A stretch of 32,000 nt of DNA, from assembly GCA_013519935.1 (NCBI GenBank), contig JACDUA010000050.1:2474-34473 (forward strand), read 5' to 3'. A program made the position numbers and the translations under genes. Position 1 is the first letter of the stretch, and the number at the start of each line of letters is the position of its first letter. This document shows positions 8,353 to 32,000 of the stretch, one piece after another. The notes below the pieces were generated by a model. It was given only the letters and a program-made list of their open reading frames with translations. It did not search any database and had not been told where the DNA came from. The DNA is from Ectothiorhodospiraceae bacterium WFHF3C12. GTDB lineage: Bacteria; Pseudomonadota; Gammaproteobacteria; Nitrococcales; Nitrococcaceae.

Positions 8353-8369
8353 CCGGGGAGGTTACGGCG

Positions 8370-11232: not shown

Positions 11233-11235
11233 AGC

Positions 11236-11937
11236 ATGTTAACGCAAAACGGTGGCGCGGCAATGGTGGTAGAGACTGATTTAGCCAACACTGTGAACAG
11301 GTTATGGTGCGACTTCAAGAACAAAGACAGTGCATCTATTCATCGAAAGATGTCGCCAATATTAGCTCATGCGCTTGATCAAGCGCGTGAAGAGTCTTTA
11401 GAGTTAGCCTATTCATTCAGGCACAACCTAGGCTTTTCGAAGTACGTGTTAGCTGAATGTGGTGTAGAAAATTGTCAATTGAGGCTCCATGTGTGGGAAG
11501 CTGACGTGGTAGATATGCCTCATAGTCACCCGTGGGACTTTCAGTCATTGGTATTAAGTGGCCGTCTTTGGAATTCGACTTATCGGGCGGCTGGGTCTGG
11601 GGTGATGGTCGATGAAATAGTAGCTCGTTCTGACTTCCGTCGACCTGGTTTCCGATACAATAGGTGCGGAAAAAGATTCATTGAGATGACATCATCTGAA
11701 GAGCTTGCAGCGTTCGATTTCTACGGCTTGCCCTATTATTGCGTTCACGCGTCTTCAACATCGTTCTGTGGAGCAGCGACTTTATTCCTTCGTGGGCCTG
11801 CAAAAAGAAAGAAAAGTTATATTTATAAGTTCCAAGAAGAAGAAAAGAAAAGGCCTTATCTGGAAAAAATTAGAAAGGATGAGTACGAAGAATCTGTAAG
11901 CTGGCTGGCGTCACTTTTTTATGAAGCTAGCGAATAG
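11236..11937 (+). CDS. cupin-like metal-binding protein
   Basis: Starts 4 nt after the upstream stop. MPHSHPWDFQSLVLSGRL is an H.H...(x)G cupin motif-1-like stretch. Lys/Glu-rich tail. Alternative start at 11263. Confidence 0.55.
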   Translation: MLTQNGGAAMVVETDLANTVNRLWCDFKNKDSASIHRKMSPILAHALDQAREESLELAYSFRHNLGFSKYVLAECGVENCQLRLHVWEADVVDMPHSHPWDFQSLVLSGRLWNSTYRAAGSGVMVDEIVARSDFRRPGFRYNRCGKRFIEMTSSEELAAFDFYGLPYYCVHASSTSFCGAATLFLRGPAKRKKSYIYKFQEEEKKRPYLEKIRKDEYEESVSWLASLFYEASE

Positions 11938-15728: not shown

Positions 15729-17636
15729 TTATGTCATGTAGGTGTGCGGGTTGGACAGCCGCAGGGTGGCGTCGGGAGCCGATCCCTCGTCTATGCGGAT
15801 ACTCGGTCGAACCGCGCGCCTGAGCGCCTCCTTGACCTTCGGGACGGGTGAGCGAGGCAGGCCGGCCAACCGCTTGATGCGCCACTCGGTGACGGACTCG
15901 CCGCGGCGGGCGAACTCGCGAGCGGCCCACGCGACCCGCCTCACCTGCGCCGCCTCAACCGACTCCGTGCACTCGGCAAGCGCAGCCCGTGTCTGAGGTA
16001 ACAAGTGGCGGTACTTCTCGTAGGTGGCGGTCGCGTCCACTGTCCGCAGTAGGGCGGTGCGAGATAGCCGGCGGGGTTTGAGTGGGCAAGCCAAGGCCTG
16101 CGTGGCGGCTTGCCGGATCTCGCTCGCAAGTTGCGAATCGCGTCCTGCCCAGTCGCACAGGCGGCGGCGAGGCCGGGGTCTGCGTGGGGGCTGGAACTGT
16201 GCTCTGAGCCATTCGTAGTCGTGCCTGTAGAACCAGGCATAGGAGGCGGAATGCATCGCCCGGTAGTCGGACAGGGAGCCATCCGCGCGGTGCCGTCGGA
16301 ACCGGGCGACGCGCCGATGCTCCTGGGCCCGGCGACGGGACAGCTGGTGGTTACGCCATAGGCTTTTGAGCTCCGGGTTTGCGGCGAGCGTCCGGTAGAC
16401 CGTCGATGTCGACACACCGGTCCTATCGACGGTTTCATCGACACTGCAACCACCCCGAAGCACACGAATGATCTCCTGCTCCTTTTCGTTACTGATGTGC
16501 TTGCGACGCCGGGGCGTCGCCACGCCCAGTGCCTCTGCGCGGAGACGCACGGTCGTGATGGAAAGCCCAAGCCGACGGGCAACCTCGGTCAGCGTGAGGC
16601 CCTGACTCCCGATGAGTTGGAGAAGTTCTGTGGCCGACTCGTCGTCTTCGTGCTGTTGATCCGACGCGAACGCTACCGGCGCTGCAGTGGTGCGAGGCGG
16701 CGCGTAGTCCAGGAATCGCCCCAGGTCGCCGAAGAGCCAGCTGATCAGCAACAGATGCTTGGCGGGATGCTTGCCGGTGCGATGGGGCCTGAGCAGGCCG
16801 GCCAGCCAGTCGCATTCGCCATGCGGGTCCAGGCGCAGCCCGTTGAAGAGCGGCGTTGCACGAAGCGCCGCGTACTCGGCGCAGAACGCCTCGTGGATCT
16901 CGCCCTGGCGAAGCCGGCCGCTGGGGGTGGTCAGCCCCAGCTCGGCGAGTCTCGCTCGGTAGGTGTCACGCCAGCCGTCGGCCACACTTGCGGGAAGCCG
17001 CGCGGTAAGAAGCTGGTGGCTCAGTTGGGCAAGAGCCACCAGAGACGCCGGAGGTGCATCAGCACGACCCGGCACTCGGCCACCCACACCCGCGTCTGGC
17101 AGGTACAGAGCGTGACGGGCATGCCGCCCGCCAACGTCAACGAGTGGCACCAGCCACTGGTCGGGGTGGCGATGGCAGGCGGCCACGCCCGGTAGTTGAT
17201 GGGAGACATGGGCGTAGCCAACGCCATAGGCCGCACGATCCTCGACCACGCACGCGGGGCAACACTGCGGCCGGGGCGGCGAGCGCACGCCGGCGCGAGT
17301 GAGCCCAAGGCCCATCCACAGCCGGTGCCCTTCAATCCCTTGCATGGCCTGACCCAGCTGCGCCGCCTGCGCCCGAGAGAGGCAGGGCCGGTAGTACGCG
17401 ATTGCCGTGTGATGCTCGCTGATCCACGCATCCTGCCTGGTGCGATCCCGAACACTGCTTCCGAGAGCGCCGAGCCGCGTGGGCAGCGGCGTTGCGAGTA
17501 TGGCGTGGCGATCCTGGACGCACCGCCGAAGCGTATCGGTCCCGCAGTGATCGCCCGAGAGGAGGTATCGCCGACTGATCCAGCTGTGCACAGTCTCATC
17601 CGGGAGGGGCTCGAGCTGGAAGGTGGGCGGGGGCAT
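15729..17636 (-). CDS. tniQ: TniQ/TnsD-like protein (Tn7-type target-selector family) with two C-terminal HTH units
   Basis: The N-terminus LEPLPDETVHSWISRRYLLSG and the later CCPACVVEDRAAYGVGYAHVSHQLPGVAACHRH fit the TniQ pattern (P.p.E.l.S...R..; CP.C......G..Y....W.l.....C..H). HTHs: LTLTEVARRLGLSITTVRLR and VDETVDRTGVSTSTVYRTL. Confidence 0.8.
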   Translation of the reverse strand: MPPPTFQLEPLPDETVHSWISRRYLLSGDHCGTDTLRRCVQDRHAILATPLPTRLGALGSSVRDRTRQDAWISEHHTAIAYYRPCLSRAQAAQLGQAMQGIEGHRLWMGLGLTRAGVRSPPRPQCCPACVVEDRAAYGVGYAHVSHQLPGVAACHRHPDQWLVPLVDVGGRHARHALYLPDAGVGGRVPGRADAPPASLVALAQLSHQLLTARLPASVADGWRDTYRARLAELGLTTPSGRLRQGEIHEAFCAEYAALRATPLFNGLRLDPHGECDWLAGLLRPHRTGKHPAKHLLLISWLFGDLGRFLDYAPPRTTAAPVAFASDQQHEDDESATELLQLIGSQGLTLTEVARRLGLSITTVRLRAEALGVATPRRRKHISNEKEQEIIRVLRGGCSVDETVDRTGVSTSTVYRTLAANPELKSLWRNHQLSRRRAQEHRRVARFRRHRADGSLSDYRAMHSASYAWFYRHDYEWLRAQFQPPRRPRPRRRLCDWAGRDSQLASEIRQAATQALACPLKPRRLSRTALLRTVDATATYEKYRHLLPQTRAALAECTESVEAAQVRRVAWAAREFARRGESVTEWRIKRLAGLPRSPVPKVKEALRRAVRPSIRIDEGSAPDATLRLSNPHTYMT

Positions 17637-18374: not shown

Positions 18375-18664
18375 GCTCGATCTCTGGCGGATACCGCAAC
18401 ACAGGACGAGACACCACTCGCCAAAAGGCCGAACTCCTCATACGGCATACAGGAGAACTTGCGAAGGCTGGTCAGGGAGACTGAGTGAGCAGCGCAGTTC
18501 GGTAGAAGGTCGTCGGTCGACCTATAAAATCAAAGAGTTGCACTGCTGGTCGGTTGAACTAACCTTTCTCTATGTTGATTGGGTGTCGCACTGCGGCAGT
18601 GCCAGCGACTCTCGGGGCCTGGCCACTGTGGCGGGAAAGGGACACGCCGGAGGGGCGCCAAGTC

Positions 18665-20227
18665 ATGGAAAAGATTAGCCTTTTCGCCGTCACGATTGGA
18701 ATCCTCTGCCTGGCCACTTCGGCCCAGGCGACCGAAGCTACCCCATATCCGGCTCAACCGAACAGTGTCTCTGAGTGTCAGCCTGCGTTCCAGGCCAATA
18801 TAAGGCAGTCCCAGGCGCTCAATAGACGCATCAGGGCATGCATCTCCTTTGACACCATGGACTCTGAGAACTCTGTGCCCACGCCCGAGTGCGACAACAT
18901 GCGCAACTTCAGCCAGAAAAGTACTCCGCATCCGAAGTGTGCCGGCCTCTACCGCCAACAGTGCCGACTGAAGAATTTCAACGACGAAGAGTACGACGCC
19001 TGCCGGGCACGGGCCCAACGCGCGGAGGCAGCCCGTCAGGCTAAAGCTCGGGCGGCGAAGCGTGAACGCCAAGAGGCCGCCCGTCGTGCAGCTTCCCATA
19101 GGCGGGCAATTGAGCAGCGTGCCGCAATACAGAATGCCTACCGCGAACGTCTTCGATCGCGCCGTCGCGCGGCCAATGAGGCCCAAGCCAGAGCCCAGGC
19201 GAAGGCTGAGGCGGTTGCCCGTGAGTTTATCGCCTCACAGCTGCCCGAGTCCGCGCGCAAGCTGTGGTCGATGGGCGAGAAGGGCAAAGGTACCTATAAG
19301 AACGTCAGCGCGATGGTCGATGCCAGTAGCTGGGTCGCGGGCATCGAAGCGGTCGGCGGCGTCGGGCGAGACTTGAATAGCGCTGCGAATACCCACCCAA
19401 TATCGTCGACAAGTACGGATTTGGCGATCGATATGCTTGTACGGCTGCATGCCGCTGCGGCCGGCGATCTTGACGCGGCTATGGCCCAGATCGGCGCACA
19501 GGCGCCAGCTCAACGGCTTGCGGCGCGCTGGCGCCGTGTCGGCGCCGCTCACCAGCGTGACTTCACGTCGAAGGCCGCTCCAATAATCCCAGGTTATGCG
19601 GGCGGTGCCGGTTCGGATGAGGTGAGATCATTCGGCCTGCCCACCGAGCTTCACACCGCGTTGACAGAACTCGAGCGCTGGCAGGCGTCCACCGCACGCC
19701 AGCGCAAGGCAAGCTATACACAGCAGTACCAAGCTCTGGTGGATCAGGAGAAGCGCATTGCGGCGCAGCGCCAGCGCCAAGCCGAGGAGGCCCGGGCCGC
19801 GGCGGAGCGAAGAGCGGCTGAGCGACGTGAGGCTGAGCGGCGTCAGCGTGAGCGCGAGCAGGTGCGTCAGCTCGCGCGGCGTTGCGACGACCTCAAGTCA
19901 AGAACAATGGCGACTGCCTCTAAGGTTTCGCTGGACTCCGCGGAAGTTGCGTTGGATCACGTCCAGGAGCGGCGGTCCAGGCTCCGGCGGATGGGGTGCG
20001 CCCCCCACCATGTGCGCGATCTCGATCGGGTGGCAGCCCAGCTGCGTCGCTCCGTGAGAATGGAGCAGGAAGCCCGGGACCGGGAACTGCGCCAAACCAT
20101 CGAAGGCGGTATCGAGTTGCTGCGGCAATACCAACAGCTTCAAGGTGGGTCTTCGGGAGGGACCGGCGGCGGTTACGGCGGTGGCTGTGCGTCGGATGAG
20201 GCGGGTTGTCTGAATCCTCTGGACTAG
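18665..20227 (+). CDS. secreted Cys-rich N-terminal / long Arg-Ala-Glu coiled-coil protein with Gly-rich tail
   Basis: Internal ATG at 18665 with GGAGGGG upstream. Signal peptide MEKISLFAVTIGILCLATSAQA. Long AERRAAERREAERRQRE-type heptad-like stretches. The tail is GGSSGGTGGGYGGGC. Confidence 0.7.
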   Translation: MEKISLFAVTIGILCLATSAQATEATPYPAQPNSVSECQPAFQANIRQSQALNRRIRACISFDTMDSENSVPTPECDNMRNFSQKSTPHPKCAGLYRQQCRLKNFNDEEYDACRARAQRAEAARQAKARAAKRERQEAARRAASHRRAIEQRAAIQNAYRERLRSRRRAANEAQARAQAKAEAVAREFIASQLPESARKLWSMGEKGKGTYKNVSAMVDASSWVAGIEAVGGVGRDLNSAANTHPISSTSTDLAIDMLVRLHAAAAGDLDAAMAQIGAQAPAQRLAARWRRVGAAHQRDFTSKAAPIIPGYAGGAGSDEVRSFGLPTELHTALTELERWQASTARQRKASYTQQYQALVDQEKRIAAQRQRQAEEARAAAERRAAERREAERRQREREQVRQLARRCDDLKSRTMATASKVSLDSAEVALDHVQERRSRLRRMGCAPHHVRDLDRVAAQLRRSVRMEQEARDRELRQTIEGGIELLRQYQQLQGGSSGGTGGGYGGGCASDEAGCLNPLD

Positions 20228-20238
20228 GGGGCCGGATA

Positions 20239-22386
20239 ATGAGCGGTTTGCGTAAACCATGTGACTCCTGCGCCGCCGCGCTGGCGCTGTCTTTGATCCT
20301 CTTGGGTGCGTGCGATTTCCAGACGGAGGCGGCGAGTGCTCAGGCGGATGGAGACAGTAGGACTGCCCCAGCGGACGACTCGGCACCTCAAAATCCAGGA
20401 TCAGGATCCGATGTCGCGGAAGAGGTGCCTGAGGGCGCAAAGGGTGAAACGCGCGACTCCATCGCCGCCGCAATCCGCCAGGATGCCGTCGACCAATACC
20501 TTGCGAGCGCCAAGCGCGAGTCCGCGAGTCCCAATGATCAGTCACGGCACTTGGCGAAGGCTGCCAGCCATGGGGCCAAGCGCATCGTCAGCCACCTTCT
20601 GGAGGCAAAGGTTGACCCCAACGCAAGAAATGGCGAGCACGTTAGCGCGCTAGAGCTTGCGATGGCGCACGAAGCACCGGCGGTGATCAAAGCGCTTGTC
20701 GAATCTGGCGCAAGCTATCCGAAAGATGCGCCTCAGTCTTTGGCCGAGGCTGCGGGGGCCCTTGAGGATCGCGAACTCGGAAACTGGCTGTTGCGGTATG
20801 CGCGCCGTGGCCCGCATCCGGTGCTCGACGTGGCGGCACGAGGCGATGTCGACACCTTGGCTGGTCTTCTTGATCAGGAGCCACGGGCAGTCAACGCCAC
20901 CGACCCGCTAGGTATGACCGCGCTGGTCCGCGCCATACTCTCTGGGCAGCGTGAAACGGCTGAGCTGCTCCTAGCGCGCGGTGCCCACCCGAATCTGAGC
21001 GGGACCGACGGTGTCACCCCGTTGGCGGCGGCCGCCATCGCCGGCGCCGCCGAGACTGCCAGATCGCTTATCGACGCCGATGCCATCGTCGACTACGCAG
21101 GTCCTGGCGGGCGTCGACCCTTGATGGCCGCGCTTGCCGCCGCGCGGCCGAGTACGGCATGGGTGCTGTTGGATGCTGGCGCGAATCGGGGGCGCATGGC
21201 GGAGGATTCGGGTCACCCGGCTGATCTGGCTGAGGCGACGGGCCTTGGGGCGTTGGCCAAGCGGACTGGTCTCGCCCGAAGCGGGCCGAATCCGCGTGCC
21301 GAGCTTGTACAGGCAATCACCAAGGGGGACGAGGATCGTGTCCTGATGCTGATTAAGAGCAACTCAGTAATTGATGCCAATGACACGGATGATGCCGGCG
21401 TTCCCTATCTTCACCTCGCGGCGATGGCTGCCAAGCCAGCGGTGATGCGGGTTCTGCTCTCTCTAGGGGCGAAGCTTGAGGGCACAGGCCCCTCCGGAGC
21501 GAATGTGCTTGGCGTGCTGGCGGCTAACGAGGGCACCTGCAGGGCCTGCTACGAGGCAGTCTTTGATCATCAGATGGATGCGGACTTTGGTGACCGGGGT
21601 CGAGCTCGGGCTCGATTGTCGACGCTGATCAATAGCCGCGACAGGCGGGGTCGAACGGCATTTCTCAGTGCGATAATCGCTGACAAGCCCTATGAGGCGG
21701 AATGGATGATCCGCCATGCCGGTGGCGATGTGTCGAATGTTGCCGACGAGGATGGCCTCACACCAGTGGTTGCCGCCGCCATTCGCGAACACGACAAGGT
21801 AGTAGATCACTATCTGAGATGGGCGACGGCCGAGTCCTTCGGCGAAGGTGAATTCAGTATCTATGATTATGCGAGGAGTGAGGCGAACTATAGGCTCCTC
21901 GCTCGCCTTCCCTATGATCGAGACATTGAGGGTATGCGTAAGGGGTCAACGAAAACAGCGATCAAGCGCTTCCAGCGTCGCGTTAAAGAATGGGGCTACT
22001 ACCACAGCGTCATCGATGGTGTTATTGGCAAAGGCCATCGTTCGGCTATGTTTGCGCTGCTCGATGACCAGCACGATGAGGTGATCGCCCTCGCTAAGGC
22101 CTCTGAGGACCTCTCTCCCTATGAGAAACAGTGGGGCGTGAGCGAGAGCGAGAGCGGCACACTGTACTACCAGTCTTCATCGGATGGAGAAATGCGCTGG
22201 GTCGTAATTGAGTGGCCCGGGGGAGACTCATTCGTTGGTCACGTACAGAACATGACTGGTGGGCACCATGTCATGTCCAAGGGCTTCGGTGTCGTCACCC
22301 GCTCTGAGGAGCGCACAAAAGAACTGGTACTACTTGACGATACGGCATGGGATGGCCTCCAATTGATCGCGGCCGTACCTTACTAA
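20239..22386 (+). CDS. ankyrin-repeat lipoprotein with C-terminal peptidoglycan-binding (PG_binding_1-like) domain
   Basis: ATG at 20239, 11 nt after the upstream stop. Lipobox LILLGAC. Several ANK units (G.T.L..A......A.LLL..GA.PN). IKRFQRRVKEWGYYHSVIDGVIGKGHRSAM fits the PG-binding motif. Confidence 0.8.
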   Translation: MSGLRKPCDSCAAALALSLILLGACDFQTEAASAQADGDSRTAPADDSAPQNPGSGSDVAEEVPEGAKGETRDSIAAAIRQDAVDQYLASAKRESASPNDQSRHLAKAASHGAKRIVSHLLEAKVDPNARNGEHVSALELAMAHEAPAVIKALVESGASYPKDAPQSLAEAAGALEDRELGNWLLRYARRGPHPVLDVAARGDVDTLAGLLDQEPRAVNATDPLGMTALVRAILSGQRETAELLLARGAHPNLSGTDGVTPLAAAAIAGAAETARSLIDADAIVDYAGPGGRRPLMAALAAARPSTAWVLLDAGANRGRMAEDSGHPADLAEATGLGALAKRTGLARSGPNPRAELVQAITKGDEDRVLMLIKSNSVIDANDTDDAGVPYLHLAAMAAKPAVMRVLLSLGAKLEGTGPSGANVLGVLAANEGTCRACYEAVFDHQMDADFGDRGRARARLSTLINSRDRRGRTAFLSAIIADKPYEAEWMIRHAGGDVSNVADEDGLTPVVAAAIREHDKVVDHYLRWATAESFGEGEFSIYDYARSEANYRLLARLPYDRDIEGMRKGSTKTAIKRFQRRVKEWGYYHSVIDGVIGKGHRSAMFALLDDQHDEVIALAKASEDLSPYEKQWGVSESESGTLYYQSSSDGEMRWVVIEWPGGDSFVGHVQNMTGGHHVMSKGFGVVTRSEERTKELVLLDDTAWDGLQLIAAVPY

Positions 22387-22845: not shown

Positions 22846-23652
22846 TCAACGTATGCCCACGGTCAGCCCAACCCACCCGCGTTTGGGACCTGATCGAACG
22901 TCGTGACCACTGACGTGTCCGCCAACTACTACTGTTCTGTCTGATACCTGATAGACGTTGTAGTCGACGCCAAGGCGCGCTTCAGTTGCACGTAGCCGAA
23001 GGGAATCACGGCCGTAGTCATCGGCGAACACCTGGACGCTCAAATTGACTACAGTGCTTTGTTGGAGAACTGGGGGCGTGTCGAGTCGTGCCCCGAGCGA
23101 AGCGTGAGTTGCGTCAAATCGGCCCAGATCCCTCAAGACGTGCCCAAAGAGCGTGGGAAGTCGCTCGGGTGGAAACGGTATGGGTACGCCGCCGAATCCC
23201 ACCCCAACCTCTGTGCCTGCTTTGTCCGGGGCGTTGTCATGAATGCGGTAGCCGGTGGCCAGTAATTCAGCATAGGCACCCTCCGAACCCAACTGTCGCG
23301 AGACGGCGAGTGTCACTTCACCGCGACTTCCGGAAGGCGCGCCATCTTGCTTGTCTAGGACACCCACGCCGCCCGCACGTACTGCGACGCCCCATGGCAT
23401 TTTTTTGCGATCCACAGTAACCGGATAACCGTAAATCCCTACCTCCGAATCAAGCTGTGTTCCAGGTGATCCCAGAAGAAACCCTCGCCAGACGGCTCTT
23501 GATTCGAGAGAGAGCGACAGCTCATTGAGTGTCGGACCCCAGTGGCTTATTGATGGCGGCTCAAACGGATCTGACGCTGTCGCCCATGGCCCGAAGGCAA
23601 TCCCGGTCGCGAATACGGTCTTGGCTAGGACTGAACGAGAAACCTTACGCAT
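22846..23652 (-). CDS. signal-peptide-bearing beta-rich protein (possible outer-membrane barrel)
   Basis: MRKVSRSVLAKTVFATGIAFGPWATA is a signal peptide. Alternating hydrophobic Gly/aromatic-rich strands follow. The start overlaps the SGNH gene stop (ATGCGTAA). Confidence 0.7.
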   Translation of the reverse strand: MRKVSRSVLAKTVFATGIAFGPWATASDPFEPPSISHWGPTLNELSLSLESRAVWRGFLLGSPGTQLDSEVGIYGYPVTVDRKKMPWGVAVRAGGVGVLDKQDGAPSGSRGEVTLAVSRQLGSEGAYAELLATGYRIHDNAPDKAGTEVGVGFGGVPIPFPPERLPTLFGHVLRDLGRFDATHASLGARLDTPPVLQQSTVVNLSVQVFADDYGRDSLRLRATEARLGVDYNVYQVSDRTVVVGGHVSGHDVRSGPKRGWVGLTVGIR

Positions 23653-24457
23653 CTTGAAACTCCCGTTCGCGGCGCTGCGTTTCCATCTTTGGAAGCTTAG
23701 CCTTCATTTGTGCGATGAACTCGTAAGCGACCTTGCGAAAGCCCTGGTTATTCGGATGAATCTCGTTTGCCCAGTCGGAATCCACGTTCAGTGTTCCCCG
23801 AAGGTCGACGTGTACGAAATCTAATGGGTAGTCGACCTGGATCTGTTGGAGTATTTCATTCATTCGATCCACTAGGACTGTCGCAATTGAACGTTGGGCT
23901 GCGTCCTCTACGATTCCCTTGTCCAGCATTGCCGGATGCATCCAAGGTCCTACAGGTAGCCGGACGCCGATGAACTTGACGGGTCGCGCCGAAGGCTGGA
24001 AGTAGTCGTAGCCGTGGGCAAGAACTGGGGCCATAGGACCGATTCGATCCAGCATGCGACGGTAGTGCCTGTCCAGTTCCTGGGTCATCTTGTCGACTTC
24101 GGCTTCCCGCAGGTGTGCAGATGGGTCATTGAACTGCCCTTTGCGGAATAGTCGACCAGCTTTCGCTAGCAGGTCGTTGCCACCGCCACTGAATAGGACG
24201 CATATTGGTTGCTCTTCCGCCACGATGTCGGCGAGAGCGTTCAGGTCTCGCTTAGTGCCGATCATGTCTGCGACGGTGGCGCCAGAGCTTTCAAGCCTCA
24301 GATGCGCGAAGTACCCCTCGTCATCGATTCGATCAATCAGATTCAGATACATTGGATAGTCGAACCAAGAGTCACCTTCACTCACCACAACGCGATAGCC
24401 CGCCCGCTTACGCCGCCTGAATCGAGACATTCGTTCCGCTGGGTTCGCCCGGCTCAT
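23645..24457 (-). CDS. SGNH/GDSL-family hydrolase
   Basis: Block I VVVSEGDSWFDY, block III LFSGGGNDL, block V WANEIHPN. I prefer the ATG at 24457 (GGGAGG 5 nt upstream) over the GTG at 24463. No signal peptide is seen. Confidence 0.8.
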   Translation of the reverse strand: MSRANPAERMSRFRRRKRAGYRVVVSEGDSWFDYPMYLNLIDRIDDEGYFAHLRLESSGATVADMIGTKRDLNALADIVAEEQPICVLFSGGGNDLLAKAGRLFRKGQFNDPSAHLREAEVDKMTQELDRHYRRMLDRIGPMAPVLAHGYDYFQPSARPVKFIGVRLPVGPWMHPAMLDKGIVEDAAQRSIATVLVDRMNEILQQIQVDYPLDFVHVDLRGTLNVDSDWANEIHPNNQGFRKVAYEFIAQMKAKLPKMETQRREREFQDA

Positions 24458-25152
24458 GGCCACCTCCCTGATCTATCCAACCTCTTTTTCGCATTGCGGT
24501 CAGAAGCCGCGAGAAACCCGTCCCGACTCGAAGAGCCCTTCCTTCCTCAATTACTATGCGATGGAAAACGCATTAGCCTCGAAAGGAACGACGATCCCGG
24601 GCTTTGACCGCGGTAAACTACGCGCATTTATCACCAACACCGACGACGTCAGTGGTATAGACGCTAATGGAAAGAGGAAAGCGAATGGTATCCGGTGCGA
24701 TGCACGCACATTGAAAGGCAAGAAAACGCCGCATGTCCGCTCTCCCTCCTTGGAGCATGGCAAATGGTTGACACCGCAGCGCCTGGACTCTGGCCTGCTG
24801 CGGCCTTCCTTCTCCTAACATCTAGTACAGGATCGAATGAATTGCAACGCGGATCCGGAAAAGGTTTCGCTACATCAATGTACGCTGCGTAATGAAGCCA
24901 AGTGTGCCCTTTATTGATTCTGTGAGGCCTCGCGACGCTAGCCTATGTCGCCCCCTAGGACTTGGTCCCATTTCAGTATTCGCTAAAATTAGGGCGCAAG
25001 CGGCTCGAGCGAGTCCGACGTCAAGCTTTGCGGCCCTTGCGCCGTTGAGTGTAGCGCTTCGGCTTTGCCATCAGACATCGCCCGCTTCAAGATGGGTTGT
25101 GACCGACGCTTTGTAAGCTCCCCAGTCAAGTAGAGATTCCGGAAACCTCTCT

Positions 25153-25641: not shown

Positions 25642-28600
25642 ATGGCCCGTGTGGACCCACGTCGCCTAGTAGGCGCGCCGTTCCGACTTGTTCGCCGAGT
25701 TCTGGCGCTCGCCCTGAACCGAGTACTGCGTTGGGACTGGCTCCGGCGCAACCTGTGGTGGGTGCAGGGTCTGCTGGTAGTCGCAACACTAGCCGGTGGC
25801 ACGTTCGCATCATTCGCAGTGGGTTTAAGAGAACCACAACAGGGTCTAAACGCCCTGACCCATTTGTACCGCGCTATTCAACTGTTTATCGGTGAGGGCG
25901 GCTGGACCGCTGACCCAGCCGATCTGAACGGGCTTGAGCTTACGGCGCTGAACGTCGCCCGCTTCGCTGGCCCGGCTGCAACAGTCTCGGTGCTGTTAGC
26001 GCTGTTGCGCTCCTTCCATCATCGCGCGCTGTTGTGGGCTCGGCCAAGTGAAGGCCATGTCGTGCTGTGTGGCCTTGGGGACGCCGGTTTCCAGTTCGTG
26101 GAGGCCTGGTTGGATGGCGGTGCCGAGGAGGTTTTGGGGTCGGGGCTTCAGAACTGGCGGCGCGCTGACGAGCACCTGGTCGTTGTGGAGGCTGATCCCG
26201 ACCGACCTGAAGTGGAGGCCTGCACGGAGCGGGGCGTGACGGTAATGGTCGGTAATGCATGCGATCCAGCCGTGTTGAGGGCCGCGAATGTGCAGCACGC
26301 GCGCGATGTGGTCGTAGCGCTACCCGAGGATCGCCACAATATCGAGGCTGCCCTCGCCACCCGGCAGCTTCTGGAAGCCTACCGCACCGACGGGCATCAA
26401 CGAGCGGATCCGCTTCGTGTGTTCGTCCACGTCGACAGCACGTGGTTGAGCGAGCGTCTCGAGTACTTCGCCCAGTTTGGAACCGATGCACCTGCTGCCG
26501 AGATTCGCTTCTTCAGCTTGTACGAAGCCGCTGTCCGCCGAGCATTGGCAGAGCACCCGCCAGACCTCTTCGCCGCCGTCCTCGACCGCCCCAGTCCGCG
26601 ATTCGCGATCTACGGATTTGGCATGATGGGGCAGGAAGTGCTGAGGCAACTGCTGCGGATCGCGCACTATCTACCGGAACAAGCGCCGTCATTCGTCATT
26701 TACGACCAGAACGCGCAGACCCGCGAGGCTGAGTTCAAGCGGCTATTTCCGGAAGTAGACCGCCATTTCGATGTCGACTTCCAGTTGATGCCTGTGGCCG
26801 CTGAGGCGGGACTGACCGTTGAGGGCGCCGCGGAGATCGCGAACGATGTCGTCCAGCATTTCATTTGCTTCGATTCCGATCGGCGTAGCGCGGCGTTCGC
26901 GCTATCGCTGCGTCAGGCATTGCTTAAAGCTGGCCCGGACGCCCATGGAACGCCGCGCAACACACCGCTCATGGTGCGTATGCGCCACCGCGACGGCCTG
27001 GCTACCCTTCTGATGCCGGCACGGCGGCATGCAGCTCCGGAAAACTCGGATACCGAGGAGCGCATCCCTGACAATCTCTACCCGTTCGGAATGGTTGAGG
27101 ACTTGTTTACACCACAGAATCTGTTGGCGAGCCGTTCGGACCAATACGCGCGCACCCTCCACGAGTGCGGATATATGGCGACACGTGCTAGCACGACGCT
27201 ACCAAAGGTGCCCGTTGACGATGACGCCGAAAACACCAGAACTCCGCGAATAACCCAGCTTGCATTCTGCGGCGGCGGCTTGGAACGGGATGGCGCCGAT
27301 ACCTTGCGATTCGTCGCCTACACCGAAACGGGCCGAGCGTTTAGCTTCGACTTGATAACCAGGGGCAACGAACGGGGCGCCATCAAGCGGGCCAGCGATC
27401 ACTCGGACGCGGATCTCACAACTCCCGGAGAAAAAGGGGCTGAACATACGCAGGGGACGCGCGTGCTGGAGCTCACTGTTAAGCGGGGGCGAAGTGGCAA
27501 AGTGACAGAGAGGTTCACGGTTCCAGCCGACGACCCCTCGGCCGTATACCGAGTGGAGGCTGATGGCGATGCCAGGGATTCCAGATGCCGGGCATTTCGT
27601 GTCTTCGGGGAGCGCATCACGGCGCTCGCGACCTCACCGGATCAGACCTGGCTGGCCATGGGCACGGATGCCGGCGCACTCCGGAGTTGGCGCATCGACG
27701 GAGAAGAAAGCGTGCTGCCAACGGCAGCGCGCTCGGGCGAGGTGTGGCGGCGTGCGAGCGGGGTACCCTGGCGCGATCTACCCGCCCGGTTCAAGGCTTC
27801 CAACCGCCGTCAGGCCGATCACATGGAAGTGAAACTGCGTGCGGTGGGCTGCGCGAGCCACCCCAGGGACAAGGAAAGCGGCAAGTCCGACAAGCAGGGC
27901 TACGGATGGTGGCGGACAGCGTTGGAGCAAGACCACAGGTTGCTTGGAGAGACGCCGCTGCTGCGGCTTGCAAGGCTTGAGCACCAAGCCTGGAACGCAG
28001 CGCACCACGCAGCAGGGTGGCGACATGGTGAGCGCCGGGTCGATGCTGCCCGCGTCCATCAGAACCTCATCCCCTGGAGCGACCTCGACGCCGGCACCCA
28101 ATCATTCGATTCGAACCATGTTCGCCAGATTCCCCATGTGCTCGACGGCAGCTTGCGAGATCAATTCTCCGGGATCGATTCGGCTGGCGATACGGACATC
28201 GAGCGTCGTCAGCTCACGCGGGTGGTGCGAGTCGGCGTCATTGGCCCCGGCCCCATTGAGTTCCATCAGCTCGCCAAGGAGTCCGACTGGACAATTGAGA
28301 GAGCTTCCGATGTCATCGCCCAGCGAGCACAAGATAGGCTGAGCGAAATCCGGGATCGTTGGGCCAGTCTGGGCGGCGCGACGTCCATGACGTTAATGTC
28401 GGCCCTACGCGAGGGCGCGGAGCGCTCAGTCGCTGAGCACCTTCTCAAGCCGGAAGGGACACCGACTCGATCCTTGGGCTTGATCGCGGTTCTGCCTCTG
28501 CCTTTCGAAGTATTCGTCAATGATTTCCGCCGCGATGAGGACGACCCGCGCCGTTCGGTCCGCGAGTTCACGGAATTGGTCGCAAGCTCGGATCATTACA

Positions 28601-28998
28601 TAGAGCTACCGCAGCGATTTGGCTCCTTGGAGGACGTTGGTTGGGCCGATCTCAGGGCCGGCTTAAACAAGGCGCGAAGGCTCCAGTATGAGCTCTACGC
28701 GGCTTTCCTTGTTCAACACTGTGACGAACTCATCATCATCCCGGGCGTCACGGATGAAGACTGGGCAGACCGGCTGAAGACGACCGAAACGGGAATGGCG
28801 GAGGCGCAGGCAAGGGTTTGGCACCTGGCACGCGACTGGTGGCGAAACCGCTCCGAGACGTCGGCGCGGATGCCTGCTCGTTACCGTTGGACCACGCACT
28901 ACCGGGTAGCGTTGGACCGTCCAGAGTCCAGCGCCGAGCAACGCCGATCAGCCGAACTCTCCCTAGGCACCAGTATCGGGCATGGAGAGAGGTCGTAG
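25642..28998 (+). CDS. 1118-aa membrane protein: 2 TM, two Rossmann (TrkA-N/RCK-like) units, an unassigned middle, a RyR repeat and a SLOG-like C-terminal module
   Basis: AGGAAG SD. TM helices near nt 25760-25830 and 25950-26010. GxGxxG units at 26059 (VVLCGLGDAGFQF) and about 26601 (FAIYGFGMMGQEV). RyR repeat at 27958-28140. The C-terminal module starts VVRVGVIGPG at 28222. Confidence 0.85.
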   Translation: MARVDPRRLVGAPFRLVRRVLALALNRVLRWDWLRRNLWWVQGLLVVATLAGGTFASFAVGLREPQQGLNALTHLYRAIQLFIGEGGWTADPADLNGLELTALNVARFAGPAATVSVLLALLRSFHHRALLWARPSEGHVVLCGLGDAGFQFVEAWLDGGAEEVLGSGLQNWRRADEHLVVVEADPDRPEVEACTERGVTVMVGNACDPAVLRAANVQHARDVVVALPEDRHNIEAALATRQLLEAYRTDGHQRADPLRVFVHVDSTWLSERLEYFAQFGTDAPAAEIRFFSLYEAAVRRALAEHPPDLFAAVLDRPSPRFAIYGFGMMGQEVLRQLLRIAHYLPEQAPSFVIYDQNAQTREAEFKRLFPEVDRHFDVDFQLMPVAAEAGLTVEGAAEIANDVVQHFICFDSDRRSAAFALSLRQALLKAGPDAHGTPRNTPLMVRMRHRDGLATLLMPARRHAAPENSDTEERIPDNLYPFGMVEDLFTPQNLLASRSDQYARTLHECGYMATRASTTLPKVPVDDDAENTRTPRITQLAFCGGGLERDGADTLRFVAYTETGRAFSFDLITRGNERGAIKRASDHSDADLTTPGEKGAEHTQGTRVLELTVKRGRSGKVTERFTVPADDPSAVYRVEADGDARDSRCRAFRVFGERITALATSPDQTWLAMGTDAGALRSWRIDGEESVLPTAARSGEVWRRASGVPWRDLPARFKASNRRQADHMEVKLRAVGCASHPRDKESGKSDKQGYGWWRTALEQDHRLLGETPLLRLARLEHQAWNAAHHAAGWRHGERRVDAARVHQNLIPWSDLDAGTQSFDSNHVRQIPHVLDGSLRDQFSGIDSAGDTDIERRQLTRVVRVGVIGPGPIEFHQLAKESDWTIERASDVIAQRAQDRLSEIRDRWASLGGATSMTLMSALREGAERSVAEHLLKPEGTPTRSLGLIAVLPLPFEVFVNDFRRDEDDPRRSVREFTELVASSDHYIELPQRFGSLEDVGWADLRAGLNKARRLQYELYAAFLVQHCDELIIIPGVTDEDWADRLKTTETGMAEAQARVWHLARDWWRNRSETSARMPARYRWTTHYRVALDRPESSAEQRRSAELSLGTSIGHGERS

Positions 28999-29500
28999 CT
29001 GCGCTACTTCCCGCTTTCCTCCGAGGACAGGCTTGAGGGGCGCTCTGCGACTATACCTTCTTCACCGTGACGGTGGATTAGGTAGAGCGCCAGCGCGATG
29101 ATGCTGATCCCGCCAGCCAGCATCAGCACGGACTCTTGCTTGAACTCGGGGGACTTCTTTCTACACTTGTTAACGATGGTTCGTTCAAATCCATCGAAAG
29201 CCTCCCACCGGGAGCAGCATTAGTGAGGGAAAGCTCCAGAGGTTCTCCTGGACCAATCGTTCGACAGACGCCCGCTCTAGAGGTGGGCGCGATGGGGCTA
29301 CCTAGCCCGACGCCCCGCTCGCCTATTCAACTCGGCTCCGCCACACGCTCTCATGGTGCCCCTCCGTCGCTGCAACCAAGTGGCCGTAGCCCTAAGGAAG
29401 CAGTACCGTACGACGCGCCCGCTGACCATCCTATATACACGATGGCGCGCAGCCTCAACGGGCTGACGCAACGGCGAACATAGGGCGAGACTCTCCGACA

Positions 29501-30370
29501 ATGCCACACGAAACGAGTCAATATGCCGGACTTATTGTCTACGCTTCCCCCGACAAGGAAAAGGCGCTCCATATTCAGCGCAGTCTAGAAGCGAGAGGGC
29601 TTCTTTGCGCCTTGGCTTCACTAGACACAATCGCCACTGAACAATCCACCCGTTATTTTATCGCGCAACTTAACGTTTCTCTGTGCATCATTCCAATTCT
29701 TTCCACGGCCGCCAACGATTGTCGATACTTTCGGTTCGCAATTTCTAAATCTGTAGCGCTGGGAAAACCAGTCTACCCCTTTCGCGTAGAGGACATGATT
29801 CCATCGCCAGACTTAGAGTTCTTCATCTCGACCACGCAGTGGATAGAGGCTTGGCCAGAGATCTCGCCGAGCCACGTTGAAACCCTTTACACTTCTGTTG
29901 CGCATCATCAAGACAATCCTCGGTCGGGCGAGCCAAAAGCGCACCTCCACAAGAGGCATACACGATGGCCCGTTCGAACGGCGTCTGTAATCGTTCTCAC
30001 GTTCGTCGCGGTATCGGCCGCGAATTGGTGGAGCCCAAACATAACGTATATCGGCAACACGGGCACACCGATTCGGGACATTAACGCGTCAGACATACGC
30101 TTAGAGGCGATACCCTATCTTGGCGCGTACCGCGTCTATATTCGCTTTGGCCCAGGCATAACTGATAAATATTCAATTGAAGAGTCTTTATACTCCCTCG
30201 ACGAGGGCGAGTTTCAGAAAGCGAGCCGCTCCAGATATTTTGGAGTTTCGAGAAAAAATCAGTTAGATTCGGTAAAGCTGAAGCTTAAGCTTCGAAGCGG
30301 AGAAGTTATTGGCCCTTTAGGCCCATATAACGCCCGCGTTCTTCCTGGCTCTTTTGATAGGGAGGGCTGA
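29501..30370 (+). CDS. TIR-like (catalytic Glu missing) single-TM protein, paralogue of the next gene
   Basis: LIVYASPDKEKALHIQRSLEARG...KPVYPF aligns with the TIR of the next ORF. TM helix VRTASVIVLTFVAVSAANWW. The C-terminal YSLDEGEF...GPLGPY motifs are shared with the next ORF. Confidence 0.7.
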   Translation: MPHETSQYAGLIVYASPDKEKALHIQRSLEARGLLCALASLDTIATEQSTRYFIAQLNVSLCIIPILSTAANDCRYFRFAISKSVALGKPVYPFRVEDMIPSPDLEFFISTTQWIEAWPEISPSHVETLYTSVAHHQDNPRSGEPKAHLHKRHTRWPVRTASVIVLTFVAVSAANWWSPNITYIGNTGTPIRDINASDIRLEAIPYLGAYRVYIRFGPGITDKYSIEESLYSLDEGEFQKASRSRYFGVSRKNQLDSVKLKLKLRSGEVIGPLGPYNARVLPGSFDREG

Positions 30371-30506
30371 GTAAGTATCAACTTAGGCCCTTGGGTCTCT
30401 ATAGGAAAGCACTCATTCGAAACGCTCTGGGGGCATGGATGGGTGTCATTGGTGCCCCGGGGCGCAATGCCTGACATATGGGAATGTAATAGAGAAGGCG
30501 TAGCCG

Positions 30507-32000
30507 ATGGTAGGCGTGTCAAGCGAACATGGGCGAAAAAACCAGGCCGCCGAACACAGCGCGTTTATAAGCTACGCGTCTGAAGACCGAGAGACGGCTA
30601 ATTCGGTGTGTAGCGTGCTAGAGCGCAAAGGGCAAAGCTGCTGGATTGCTCCTCGGGACGTACAACCGGGTCATGACTACGGGGAAGAGATAATAAGGGG
30701 CATAGAGCAGTCCCGAGCCGTAATCGTAATTATCTCGGATTCGGCTAATCGATCTGTGTTCGTCGCGCGAGAGGTAGAACGCGCTGTAAGCAAGAGAAAA
30801 CCTGTCTTTCCCGTCAAGACCGACGGGTCGTCTTTGTCTAAGAAGCTTGAGTTGTTTCTCGCCACCGCAAGGTGGATTGATTATAGGGAAGGGGCACTAA
30901 CAGATTCACTCGCCGAGTTGTCTCATTATTTAGATGACGAGAGGGCGCTCGCGGAAGGCGAGGCGCTCTCGAAGCGCGCACTGTGGCGCGCGCGCTTACC
31001 ACGGCTTGCAATGGCGGCAGCGTCGCTATTTGTGGTTGTGGTCGGCGCTGTGGTGGTCGCGAACTGGTATATGGCAGAACTGCTGAAGGATCGGGGTTTT
31101 GACGATACTGCCAGCCTGTCCTCACTTGATACAAAGGACTTTGCGATTGACCGAGTCGATTTCGATTCTCACTCTCCTCCCGCGGTACCGAGTGTATGGC
31201 GTGTCTCTATCCAGCTTCCCGGCCGAGTGCTTCGGGGTCCCTTGACGGAAAGTTTCTTCAGCGGCTCTATTGAGTACTCTCTCGATGGCGAGAGATTCGA
31301 GGCCTCTATAAGCCCGCACTCGATAAGGCTTACGGGGAAAGAACACATACAATATGATCGCATATGGTTTAGGCATGTCGAGCACGATGGCACCCGACAT
31401 GGACCGTTTGGGCCCTATGAACTGGACTTGCGGGATGTGGCGCTGGGGGCCGTAAAAAGGGAGGTGCGCGAAAACGACAAAAGTCTCTCAACTGGATCGG
31501 ATCAAGTTGGCACAGAAAACGGAGAGGCAGAGTGTGAGGCGATGACTGAAATCGCGGATATTTCCTCGGTTACCCGTGACTGCATTATCGAGGTTAGCGG
31601 GTACGGCGACGGCGAAATCTTGGCAGCGGGTTTGAGTGAAGCAGGAGAGTTCAGAGACTTCGTCTGGCAAAACGCGGCTCTCATTGATCGCGTTGAATAC
31701 TGGATAGAGCGTGATGGCGGTGGGGGTGAGAAGGAGTTCGATCAAGGGGAAATCGATATAGCGGGCAGGGAAGTCGATGGGTTTGCGAGTTATGAAGAGG
31801 CGGATGAGTACTGGAAAGAGGCGCTGACGGTTGATTTGCCGCAACATGCGAGACGATTTTATGGACGTCTGGTTCTGATAGATGGATCAGCGACGCTGAT
31901 TGAAAGAGTGGAGGTCGAGGCCGTGGGGTCCGTCATTGACGAGAATTCAGGGGCCGTCATTGATGAGAATCCATTCGAGGCATTTGAACCTCTGCGGTAG
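30507..32000 (+). CDS. TIR-domain (TIR_2-like) single-TM protein with large C-terminal domain
   Basis: FISYASEDRETANSVCSVLERKGQSCWIAPRDVQPGHDYGEEI...VIVIISDSANRSVFVAREVERAV..KPVFPV. The Glu89 codon gag lies at 30771-30773. TM helix LAMAAASLFVVVVGAVVVANWYM. The stop codon is the last triplet of the window. Confidence 0.85.
   Translation: MVGVSSEHGRKNQAAEHSAFISYASEDRETANSVCSVLERKGQSCWIAPRDVQPGHDYGEEIIRGIEQSRAVIVIISDSANRSVFVAREVERAVSKRKPVFPVKTDGSSLSKKLELFLATARWIDYREGALTDSLAELSHYLDDERALAEGEALSKRALWRARLPRLAMAAASLFVVVVGAVVVANWYMAELLKDRGFDDTASLSSLDTKDFAIDRVDFDSHSPPAVPSVWRVSIQLPGRVLRGPLTESFFSGSIEYSLDGERFEASISPHSIRLTGKEHIQYDRIWFRHVEHDGTRHGPFGPYELDLRDVALGAVKREVRENDKSLSTGSDQVGTENGEAECEAMTEIADISSVTRDCIIEVSGYGDGEILAAGLSEAGEFRDFVWQNAALIDRVEYWIERDGGGGEKEFDQGEIDIAGREVDGFASYEEADEYWKEALTVDLPQHARRFYGRLVLIDGSATLIERVEVEAVGSVIDENSGAVIDENPFEAFEPLR

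Follow-up and report, generated by a model that had tools for sequence, protein, structure and literature searches.

At the end of a 32,000-nucleotide stretch of DNA from Ectothiorhodospiraceae bacterium WFHF3C12 (hereafter the window, analysed at its full length), two adjacent open reading frames, ORF1 and ORF2, each encode an N-terminal TIR domain followed by a single transmembrane (TM) helix and a C-terminal extension. They raise the question whether a bacterial TIR protein can be built as a receptor, with the TIR domain in the cytoplasm and a sensory part outside, as the original prediction made from the sequence supposed, and, if so, which protein would act as its partner. Our analysis suggests that ORF2, ORF1 and the gene immediately upstream constitute a receptor-like variant of Thoeris-type TIR signalling with a single-pass membrane TIR protein, a reading in which belief and doubt are for us about equally balanced. 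It is carried by domain architecture, the status of the catalytic residue, family membership and conserved gene linkage (for coordinates, see Table 1).

ORF1 and ORF2 align by BLASTP (E = 3e-16, 23% identity; ORF1 residues 3-277 with ORF2 residues 12-305) over the TIR domain, the TM helix and about 100 residues beyond it, and have in common the motifs YSLDEGEF/YSLDGERF and GPLGPY/GPFGPY; to judge from this alignment, the two are diverged paralogues. ORF2, the stop codon of which forms the final three bases of the window, exceeds ORF1 by 208 amino acids (aa). Most of what had been read from the sequence in the original prediction was borne out: the Pfam TIR_2 model matches the N-terminal region of both proteins, each contains a single hydrophobic segment and no N-terminal hydrophobic signal, the C-terminal motifs are indeed shared, the second protein is longer by the anticipated 200 or so residues, and the codon usage is AT-richer, with a GC content at third codon positions (GC3) of 0.52 in ORF1 and 0.56 in ORF2 compared with 0.69 in the upstream gene and 0.65-0.80 in most of the window. 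The 24-nt tandem duplication noticed earlier in the acidic tail of ORF2 also exists, but occupies 31926-31973 rather than 31931-31970. Its copies are 88% identical, encode GSVIDENS and GAVIDENP, and fall within a disordered segment of low predicted local distance difference test (pLDDT) values; Tandem Repeats Finder missed this duplication, and a separate repeat search recovered it.

The TIR domain of ORF2 is readily recognized (TIR_2, 79.5 bits, E = 3.7e-22), with additional matches to the Pfam TIR and ThsB_TIR models (the latter at 24.8 bits against a cut-off of 21.2), and the fold matches of its structural model include TIR-STING, SARM1, AbTir, BtpA and BcThsB (E = 9e-6 to 1e-3). Glu89 of ORF2 occupies the catalytic position, aligning with the motif glutamate of TIR-STING (6wt6), and a glutamate is found at this position in 118 of 119 relatives. 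As marks of a competent TIR NADase or cyclase we took the glutamate of the alpha-C motif (S..W/F..E) together with an intact BB-loop region; ORF2 possesses both and ORF1 does not. Apparently, the ORF2 TIR domain retains the residues needed for NAD+ cleavage and is putatively active.

With respect to the position of ORF2 relative to the membrane, clusters of lysine and arginine lie on the N-terminal side of the TM helix in both ORFs, and an excess of these residues on the TIR side of the helix was observed in 92 of 110 relatives. This positive-inside bias, together with the missing signal peptide, predicts a single-pass protein with the N-terminus in and the C-terminus out, in agreement with the cytoplasmic placement of the TIR domain originally proposed. 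The C-terminal part, which had been assigned to the other side of the membrane, likewise appears to be of an extracytoplasmic kind: it is modelled as tandem beta-sandwiches resembling immunoglobulin (Ig) or fibronectin type III domains, and relatives carry discoidin, LCCL or TPR domains in its place. In the AlphaFold2 model of ORF2 residues 200-497 (predicted TM-score 0.66), the two sandwiches, which we denote modules A and B, are separated by a disordered acidic linker and followed by a disordered tail; in this model they look like two generic beta-sandwiches of a type that is normally extracytoplasmic.

Together these form what we call the A-B unit, consisting of module A (Y(S/A)(L/F)D.G.F ... 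DG...GPF.Y), a helix and module B (V(K/D)(E/R)(I/V)(R/E)(Y/L/I) ... (V/I)Y..(F/L).F.DG..S). ORF2 contains one such unit and ORF1 module A alone. Among relatives the unit is strongly divergent and frequently duplicated; an iterative profile search detected it, often in two copies, in P0002, P0003, P0005, P0007, P0009-P0011, P0014, P0017, P0019, P0024, P0028, P0033 and others of the closest TIR relatives, and a profile search with the ectodomain alignment A4 returned only the protein from which the query came. An exhaustive phmmer search with ORF2 residues 190-497 against 1.84 billion representatives yielded three weak matches. Two of these, P0121 and P0122, were rejected as relatives, the resemblance consisting of a YSLDGGxF motif within SprB/Ig-like surface repeats. 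The third, P0123 (675 aa), combines a DUF4062 domain (PF13271, 1.3e-10), a TM helix and two units that are colinear with the whole ORF2 ectodomain; the presence of the A-B unit on a DUF4062 head indicates that the outer module is mobile and not bound to this TIR domain. An Asp-box (BNR) interpretation of YSLDG was also discarded because the spacing differs and the model is a sandwich, not a propeller.

A search of 5.8 billion clustered proteins with ORF2 retrieved 385 significant relatives, nearly all of which match only the first 22-40% of the query, i.e., the TIR domain. In approximately 108 of the 120 best relatives, a single hydrophobic helix is located at residues 150-195, and the TIR domains of this clade conform to the consensus AFISYA..D..A..I...LE..G..CWIAPRD..PG..Y..EII.GI ... 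S..N.S.FV.REVERAVSK.KP.FP.R. Nearly all of the invariant residues are retained in ORF2. The modules that follow the helix vary among the closest relatives, comprising TPR (44), F5/8C discoidin (15), LCCL (14), A-B (17) and other or unrecognized domains (29). A pattern scan limited to one genome per species brought the count of TIR-TM relatives to at least 572, and those among the matches listed come from Proteobacteria, Acidobacteriota, Planctomycetota, Verrucomicrobiota, Gemmatimonadota, Bacteroidales, Lachnospiraceae and others, representing at least eight phyla. By these matches, ORF2 belongs to an extensive clade of bacterial TIR proteins that are receptor-like in build and uncharacterised. 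The combination of a conserved TIR domain, a helix and a swappable C-terminal module in so many relatives also means that the architecture is common in databases, which qualifies the suggestion that the arrangement is new: we found no account of bacterial proteins with a TIR domain, a TM helix and an outer domain in the open-access literature, although earlier descriptions are possible, but the architecture itself is not rare. Lectin-TIR fusions have been described and were taken to be intracellular sensors (Kaur et al., 2021).

As for the partner of ORF2, the original prediction pointed beyond the end of the window; the likely candidate is instead the gene immediately upstream of ORF1, which probably encodes the functional partner. 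For the DNA past position 32000, an exact 40-mer scan of metagenome contigs gave no match; the source contig, of 34,622 nt, exceeds the window by about 2.6 kb at most. The 1118-aa product combines two N-terminal hydrophobic helices that flank a short conserved segment, as seen in hydropathy and in the alignment with its homologue from locus L010, with a TrkA_N/RCK-type Rossmann domain, a RyR repeat and a C-terminal domain that links it to the neighbours of related TIR genes. Near the genes for P0024, P0007, P0028 and P0033 are encoded a patatin and an unannotated protein of about 600 aa. The latter proteins are homologous to each other, contain four TM helices in two pairs, match SLATT_1 (best E = 2.3e-11), DUF4231, SLATT_3 and SLATT_5, and display within their N-terminal 200 aa the motifs GvtGhR ... 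lAEGaDr ... sD.LiAlWDG..g.GGT..g.Pv, a LOG/SLOG-like pattern (alignment A6). A profile of this N-terminal domain built without the window sequence matches the C-terminal part of the upstream gene with E = 1.2e-14 (47 bits), and tblastn with L003_606 detects the same domain (1.5e-5). We refer to this domain as SLOG-like, its SLOG identity being putative. Moreover, L010, from a Woeseiaceae metagenome-assembled genome (MAG), presents the gene order patatin, an 824-aa TrkA_N + RyR + SLOG-like protein and TIR-TM-(A-B)x2; the 824-aa protein aligns with the window partner by BLASTP (6e-20 and 9e-12), and its gene overlaps the TIR-TM-AB gene. The helix-segment-helix-RCK layout of the window partner resembles, by analogy, that of two-TM channels with an RCK domain; no Ion_trans Pfam match and no pore signature were detected in the protein. 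A metagenome pattern search with the partner alignment A5 matched 321 stretches, none of which was confirmed. Between the TrkA_N domain and the RyR repeat, the window protein contains an insert of about 200 residues (aa ~490-700, window 27120-27720) that has no family match and is absent from the L010 homologue.

The linkage of SLOG-like and TIR-TM genes recurs across loci. The A-B subfamily is represented by 11 distinct loci (the window, L001, L002, L003, L004, L006, L010, L015, L086, L088 and L089). A SLOG-like gene is present in eight of these, usually directly adjacent to the TIR gene and often overlapping it or only 4-110 bp away, and a patatin gene in seven. Typical operons have the order TIR, SLOG-like-SLATT, patatin (L006) or SLOG-like-SLATT, patatin, TIR, TIR (L015), and a SLATT protein is encoded beside the TIR gene in L001, L003, L004, L006, L015, L026 and other relatives. 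The patatins of the relatives match models of the phospholipase effectors (CapV-like) of the cyclic oligonucleotide-based antiphage signalling system (CBASS) with E = 1.7e-44. Across the wider set of TIR-TM loci, 16 of 86 contain a SLOG-like gene, which usually adjoins the TIR gene.

The idea that ORF1 and ORF2 are two equivalent TIR enzymes had to be abandoned. ORF1 scores barely above threshold with TIR_2 (29.1 bits, cut-off 28), and its kinship is detectable only via ORF2 or a family profile. The catalytic glutamate is replaced by Ala80, WIAPR by ALASL and REVERAVSK by FAISKSVAL, and the BB-loop region (PG..Y..EI..GI) is gone. The catalytic-position glutamate is retained in 103 of the 106 TIR copies of all fetched loci, ORF1 being among the three exceptions, and the ORF1 TIR domain is apparently catalytically dead. 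Of 77 TIR columns with at least 85% conservation, derived from 13 TIR domains of the A-B subfamily, ORF1 keeps 41 and ORF2 56; those kept in ORF1 make up the structural core (YAS-D, LEG-C, LSAAN, KPV-P and PSLEFSTQWIEAW), some of them being nearer the consensus than in ORF2. The retention of the core combined with the loss of the functional surface suggests a pseudo-enzyme preserved as a partner or regulator. Most likely, ORF1 serves ORF2 as a partner or regulator without catalytic activity of its own, or else is heading toward loss.

In four of the 11 A-B loci, a second TIR gene adjoins the first. Besides the window, these are L003, with a convergent gene for 575 aa, L015, with two tandem TIR-TM-AB genes for 435 and 436 aa, and L088. 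Of the 86 wider TIR-TM loci, 14 contain two or three TIR genes. Tandem pairing is thus recurrent but not a defining, conserved feature of the family. The paired copies in L003 and L015 retain the catalytic glutamate. In L088 (6962-12940), the second gene of the tandem, which comes after a TIR-TM-(A-B)x2 gene, encodes a 1261-aa protein that combines a divergent TIR domain (TIR_2, 44.8 bits) with its own TM helix near residue 199 and a C-terminal region of about 1000 aa without annotation. In L060 (9959-11881), from a Pyrinomonadaceae MAG, an intact TIR-TM gene is preceded, at a distance of 3 nt, by a TIR copy with Gln in place of the glutamate and a degenerate CWIAPR motif; the arrangement represents either another tandem of a dead and an active TIR or a gene that has undergone a frameshift.

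The linkage of a TIR protein to SLOG-like, SLATT and phospholipase partners follows the logic of Thoeris, and on this basis roles can be proposed for the three genes of the window. By analogy with Thoeris, a trigger, perhaps perceived by the outer domains, would alter the oligomeric state of the membrane TIR proteins, and the TIR domain of ORF2 would act as the signal generator, converting NAD+ into an ADP-ribose-derived signal of the cyclic ADP-ribose (cADPR) type, with ORF1 as a non-catalytic modulator. The upstream protein would be the receptor-effector, in which the SLOG-like domain would bind the signal and open or otherwise activate the membrane protein, a role that SLATT pores and CapV-like phospholipases might fill in the relatives. 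The predicted outcome would be failure of membrane integrity or ion balance and a halt of growth or of phage replication. Extracellular sensing by the outer domains of ORF2 is plausible, the candidate sensor function being suggested by the swapping, at the level of the family, of these domains with classic binding modules. A bolder generalization, which we judge rather unlikely, is that outside-in TIR receptors are widespread: interchangeable ectodomains (A-B, discoidin, LCCL or TPR) would bind a cue from outside the cell or from the periplasm, for example a phage particle, a piece of cell wall or an adjacent cell, and would thereby cluster the cytoplasmic TIR domains, a cADPR-type messenger would gate the RCK/RyR/SLOG-like protein, and ORF1 would set the threshold.

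Several observations weigh against interpreting the three genes as a receptor-like Thoeris variant. PADLOC and NCBIfam recognize no system or equivalog at the locus, the PADLOC ThsB matches reaching E = 3.5e-4 or weaker. The Foldseek matches of the modelled ORF2 ectodomain, to PTPRD FN4-6, interferon-gamma, prolactin and gp130 receptors and the bacterial adhesins Bap, SiiE and GhpA, are marginal (E = 6.8e-4 to 1e-2, TM-scores 0.2-0.34) and represent generic folds. All SLOG matches in Pfam are below the cut-off (YpsA 0.0031, YAcAr 0.0057-0.054, DprA 0.2), the SLOG-like profiles A1, A3 and A6 retrieved from the PDB only spurious matches (phosphofructokinase, designed coiled coils and TyrRS), and the window copy diverges at the C-terminal glycine-rich motif, with IIIPGVTDE in place of WDG..GGT. 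Neither a SLATT domain nor a patatin gene was found in the window, and the full-length profile of the partner family matches only the SLOG-like part of the upstream protein. The co-transcription and shared history of the TIR genes and the partner gene are uncertain because they differ in GC3 and are separated by a 502-bp spacer, in which no convincing promoter was detected, only a weak terminator-like site (29133-29152); the promoter and terminator scan gave nothing beyond the shuffled background that would define a transcription unit. Furthermore, about 70 of the 86 wider TIR-TM loci have no SLOG-like neighbour, and A-B loci L002, L086 and L088 also lack one. This scarcity, which extends to patatin genes within 10 kb, and the separation of the window TIR genes from the upstream gene in composition and distance fit a different explanation, namely that the TIR-TM protein is a self-contained membrane NADase, a one-gene module of abortive infection or stress suicide, with the SLOG-like, SLATT and patatin genes being island cargo. 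Several bacterial TIR domains deplete NAD+, as established for the TIR effectors of CBASS and Pycsar (cited in PMC9122126). Nevertheless, we consider such a module unlikely: a SLOG-like gene is found in eight of the 11 A-B loci, often overlapping the TIR gene or at a short distance from it, the rare TrkA_N + RyR + SLOG-like architecture recurs in an unrelated MAG, again upstream of a TIR-TM-AB gene, and SLATT and CapV-like patatin proteins belong to the typical effectors that a signal activates.

That the pair is incidental, ORF1 being a decaying, functionless duplicate, is a substantial possibility, although for us the balance tips somewhat against it. The search of the clustered proteins with ORF1, which also counts against the receptor-like Thoeris variant, returned only ORF1 itself; its Pfam score is borderline, the catalytic residue and module B are missing, the hydropathy of its TM helix is the weakest, and no obvious Shine-Dalgarno sequence precedes the gene. 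However, the 289-codon frame is intact, the losses cluster in functional motifs whereas core columns survive, in part better than in ORF2, the invariant G..GP..Y of module A is kept, a TIR domain without the glutamate lies directly upstream of an intact one in L060 as well, and tandem membrane TIR genes recur (L015, L088, L033, L037, L039, L071 and L077). With regard to the sensing step, the outer domains could instead serve as an anchor or oligomerisation scaffold, with a cytoplasmic trigger, e.g., a phage protein, as in known Thoeris systems. This would accord with the detection of infection in the cytoplasm by known ThsB proteins, with the fact that all partner effectors are membrane proteins or membrane-acting enzymes, and with the generic character of the beta-sandwich matches, which include no ligand-site similarity and provide no clue to a ligand. 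We nonetheless find a mere scaffold doubtful, since the relatives place ligand-binding modules (discoidin/F5-8C, LCCL, FGE-sulfatase/lectin-like and TPR) on a near-invariant TIR domain, as expected of interchangeable sensors, and the divergence and frequent duplication of the A-B module are unlike those of a simple anchor. Conceivably, the system might not act in defence at all but report an envelope, cell-contact or kin cue and regulate ion flux via the RCK-domain partner. Its wide distribution in free-living soil and sediment bacteria, many copies being on large chromosomal contigs, would fit such housekeeping or social signalling, as would a TrkA_N/RCK domain typical of the regulation of K+ transport and neighbours such as caspase, ankyrin, nSTAND1 and MAP3K_TRAF_bd that belong to conflict or apoptosis-like systems of multicellular bacteria (PMC7159879, PMC8195603). 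We regard this as improbable because several loci adjoin integrases or transposition genes and have variable cargo, and SLATT and CapV-like patatin partners are of cell-killing types. For the window, a receptor-like variant of Thoeris-type signalling remains the reading that we prefer.

Table 1. Features of the TIR locus and of the gene upstream of it (positions in the window).
Feature	Position	Strand	Description
Putative partner/effector gene	25642-28998	+	1118 aa; two N-terminal hydrophobic helices, TrkA_N/RCK, RyR, C-terminal SLOG-like domain
Partner TrkA_N/RCK-type Rossmann domain	26158-26379	+	aa 173-246; Pfam TrkA_N 3.6e-15
Partner RyR repeat	27964-28131	+	aa 775-830; Pfam RyR 6e-7, PDB 6uhi 6e-12
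Partner SLOG-like domain (putative)	28222-28734	+	homologous to the N-terminal domain of SLOG-like + SLATT proteins beside related TIR genes
Spacer between partner gene and ORF1	28999-29500		intergenic, 502 bp, GC 0.60
ORF1	29501-30370	+	289 aa; degenerate TIR, one TM helix, module A only
ORF1 pseudo-TIR domain	29534-29854	+	aa 12-118; Ala80 at the catalytic Glu position
ORF1 TM helix	29966-30028	+	~aa 156-176; Kyte-Doolittle 1.5; after KRHTRWPVR
ORF1 module A	30083-30340	+	~aa 195-280; YSLDEGEF ... GEVIGPLGPY
ORF2	30507-32000	+	497 aa; intact TIR, one TM helix, module A, helix, module B, acidic tail
ORF2 TIR domain	30564-30893	+	aa 20-129; CWIAPRD, Glu61, Arg88-Glu89-Val-Glu91-Arg92
ORF2 TM helix	31005-31067	+	aa 167-187; Kyte-Doolittle 2.7; after KRALWRARLPR
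ORF2 module A	31143-31421	+	aa 213-305; modelled beta-sandwich, YSLDGERF ... DGTRHGPFGPY; pLDDT 80-95
ORF2 module B	31683-31913	+	aa 393-469; second modelled beta-sandwich, IDRVEY ... FYGRLVLIDGS; pLDDT 72-85
ORF2 tail tandem duplication	31926-31973	+	24-nt copies 31926-31949 and 31950-31973; from repeat search

The surroundings of these genes, in the window and in related loci, contain further elements of potential interest. Upstream of the partner gene by 1.2 kb and on the opposite strand (23645-24463), a weak match to GDSL-like lipases was detected (2.6e-5, below the cut-off). A TnsD/TniQ-like protein of Tn7 target selection is encoded at 15729-17636 on the minus strand (TnsD 5.4e-44, TniQ 4.7e-10), and the TIR locus was considered as Tn7 cargo; no obvious TnsA, TnsB or TnsC was found beside the TnsD gene and no element ends were identified. 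At 18572-22386, an ORF of 551 aa that includes a TolA-like stretch of low complexity runs for 22 nt into the start of a gene for a 726-aa ankyrin-repeat protein, and an ankyrin + pentapeptide protein is encoded near the related TIR gene in L086. At 5870-9752, a gene for a caspase-like protein (Peptidase_C14, 7300-8352, E = 6.5e-15), 21 kb from the TIR genes, is flanked by two unannotated ORFs: the upstream one, of 482 aa, overlaps it, and the downstream one, of 460 aa, starts 18 nt past its stop, so that the three look like an operon; TIR-activated caspase-like effectors are known from type IV Thoeris. An AT-rich block at about 10.3-12.6 kb (GC 0.44-0.49, GC3 0.43-0.48), in which the bias is stronger than in the TIR-gene block, is probably foreign DNA, and two adjacent plus-strand ORFs of 276 and 233 aa at 10402-11937 have no Pfam or NCBIfam match. 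The minus strand at 1988-2797 yields a weak match to the uracil-DNA glycosylase superfamily (4e-7). Among the relatives, L001 (5599-6933) and L089 (8816-10150) have in common a conserved 444-aa MAP3K_TRAF_bd + TPR-S protein, whose gene separates the TIR gene from those for the patatin and the SLOG-like-SLATT protein, and both loci also carry a phage-type integrase; in L004, an nSTAND1 ATPase is found in the neighbourhood equivalent to that of the 444-aa gene.

Among known systems, Thoeris is the closest by gene content. A recent survey delineates 29 putative types, of which types I and III combine TIR proteins with a SLOG effector, type III having several TIR proteins, type VII couples a TIR protein to the SLATT effector ThsH via the canonical cADPR signal, and type X employs an ion channel; phospholipases are among the predicted effectors (bioRxiv 10.64898/2025.12.03.692087). 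According to Iyer et al. (PMC9503650), YpsA-like SLOG domains are sensors of cADPR variants, and SLATT is a predicted permeability effector under the control of ADP-ribose derivatives. TIR genes beside those for SLOG, SLATT, phospholipase or channel effectors are therefore already known Thoeris logic. The present locus resembles these systems in the placement of a TIR domain with the catalytic glutamate beside a putative nucleotide-sensing protein with a membrane-acting output and in the presence of several TIR genes, as in type III; the SLOG-like and SLATT neighbours of the relatives are comparable to ThsH of type VII and to the SLOG effectors of types I and III, as are their phospholipases to those predicted, and the window partner, with its likeness to RCK-gated membrane proteins, recalls the type X channel in a comparison made by description. 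It differs in that the TIR protein is predicted to cross the membrane once and to place about 300 aa outside, an architecture not reported for the described ThsB proteins in the open-access papers, that one of the two TIR domains looks catalytically dead, and that a TrkA_N + RyR + SLOG-like protein is not among the named effectors. The match to the NCBIfam type III model Thoeris_type3_ThcB4 is 15.8 bits against a cut-off of 220, far from a curated ThcB assignment, and, as regards type VII, no SLATT-domain effector adjoins the TIR genes in the window.

Resemblance to CBASS is confined to effectors, namely the CapV-like patatins and the SLATT domains in the partners of the relatives. The signal generator here would be a TIR domain, neither patatin nor SLATT occurs within the window, and PADLOC gave no CD-NTase or CBASS match for the proteins of the locus. 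Another parallel is the validated three-gene defence locus of phage AC1, which comprises a TIR protein and transmembrane proteins and in which a TIR-made messenger is interpreted as activating the membrane effectors (Rousset et al., 2022; PMC9122126). In that system, again compared by description, the TIR protein and the 'associated transmembrane proteins' are described separately, and no large outer domain or SLOG-like partner is described.

For the possible role of ORF1, plants offer an analogy. In RRS1/RPS4, adjacent genes encode one protein with a signalling-competent TIR domain and one with a non-catalytic TIR domain that regulates the former through TIR-TIR contact, and in animal Toll-like receptor and interleukin-1 receptor (TLR/IL-1R) systems there are non-signalling or accessory TIR chains. 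The plant proteins are intracellular nucleotide-binding leucine-rich repeat receptors from another kingdom, such that the analogy is functional only. The bacterial combination of an active and an inactive TIR protein offers a simple model of regulation by a pseudo-enzyme, and the occurrence of a TIR gene beside one for a protein with a RyR repeat is relevant to how cADPR-to-ryanodine-receptor signalling arose in evolution. The family is found in hundreds of species and has clear genetic partners (SLOG-like + SLATT, CapV-like patatin and the RCK/RyR protein), so the hypothesis is directly testable with a three-gene cassette.

To our knowledge, the bacterial TIR signalling systems for which experiments have been described (Thoeris types I-XI) are all taken to detect infection inside the cell. 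With a membrane-spanning TIR protein that exposes variable domains of a binding type, TIR immunity would come to include surveillance of the cell surface, permitting a response before or at genome entry, or to envelope damage. If outside-in TIR receptors do exist, they would be the prokaryotic counterpart both of the TLR/IL-1R architecture and of cADPR-to-RyR signalling, and the architecture would be the nearest bacterial parallel to these animal receptors, with which it shares an ectodomain (in IL-1R, Ig-like), a single TM helix and a TIR domain in the cytoplasm, as well as the interchangeability of ectodomains on a conserved TIR. The bacterial protein, however, has the opposite polarity, a type II orientation with the TIR domain at the N-terminus, homology cannot be detected beyond the TIR domain, and the TIR domain of ORF2 keeps the enzymatic glutamate whereas those of TLR/IL-1R are scaffolds. 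The resemblance to the animal receptors is thus one of architecture and is probably convergent.

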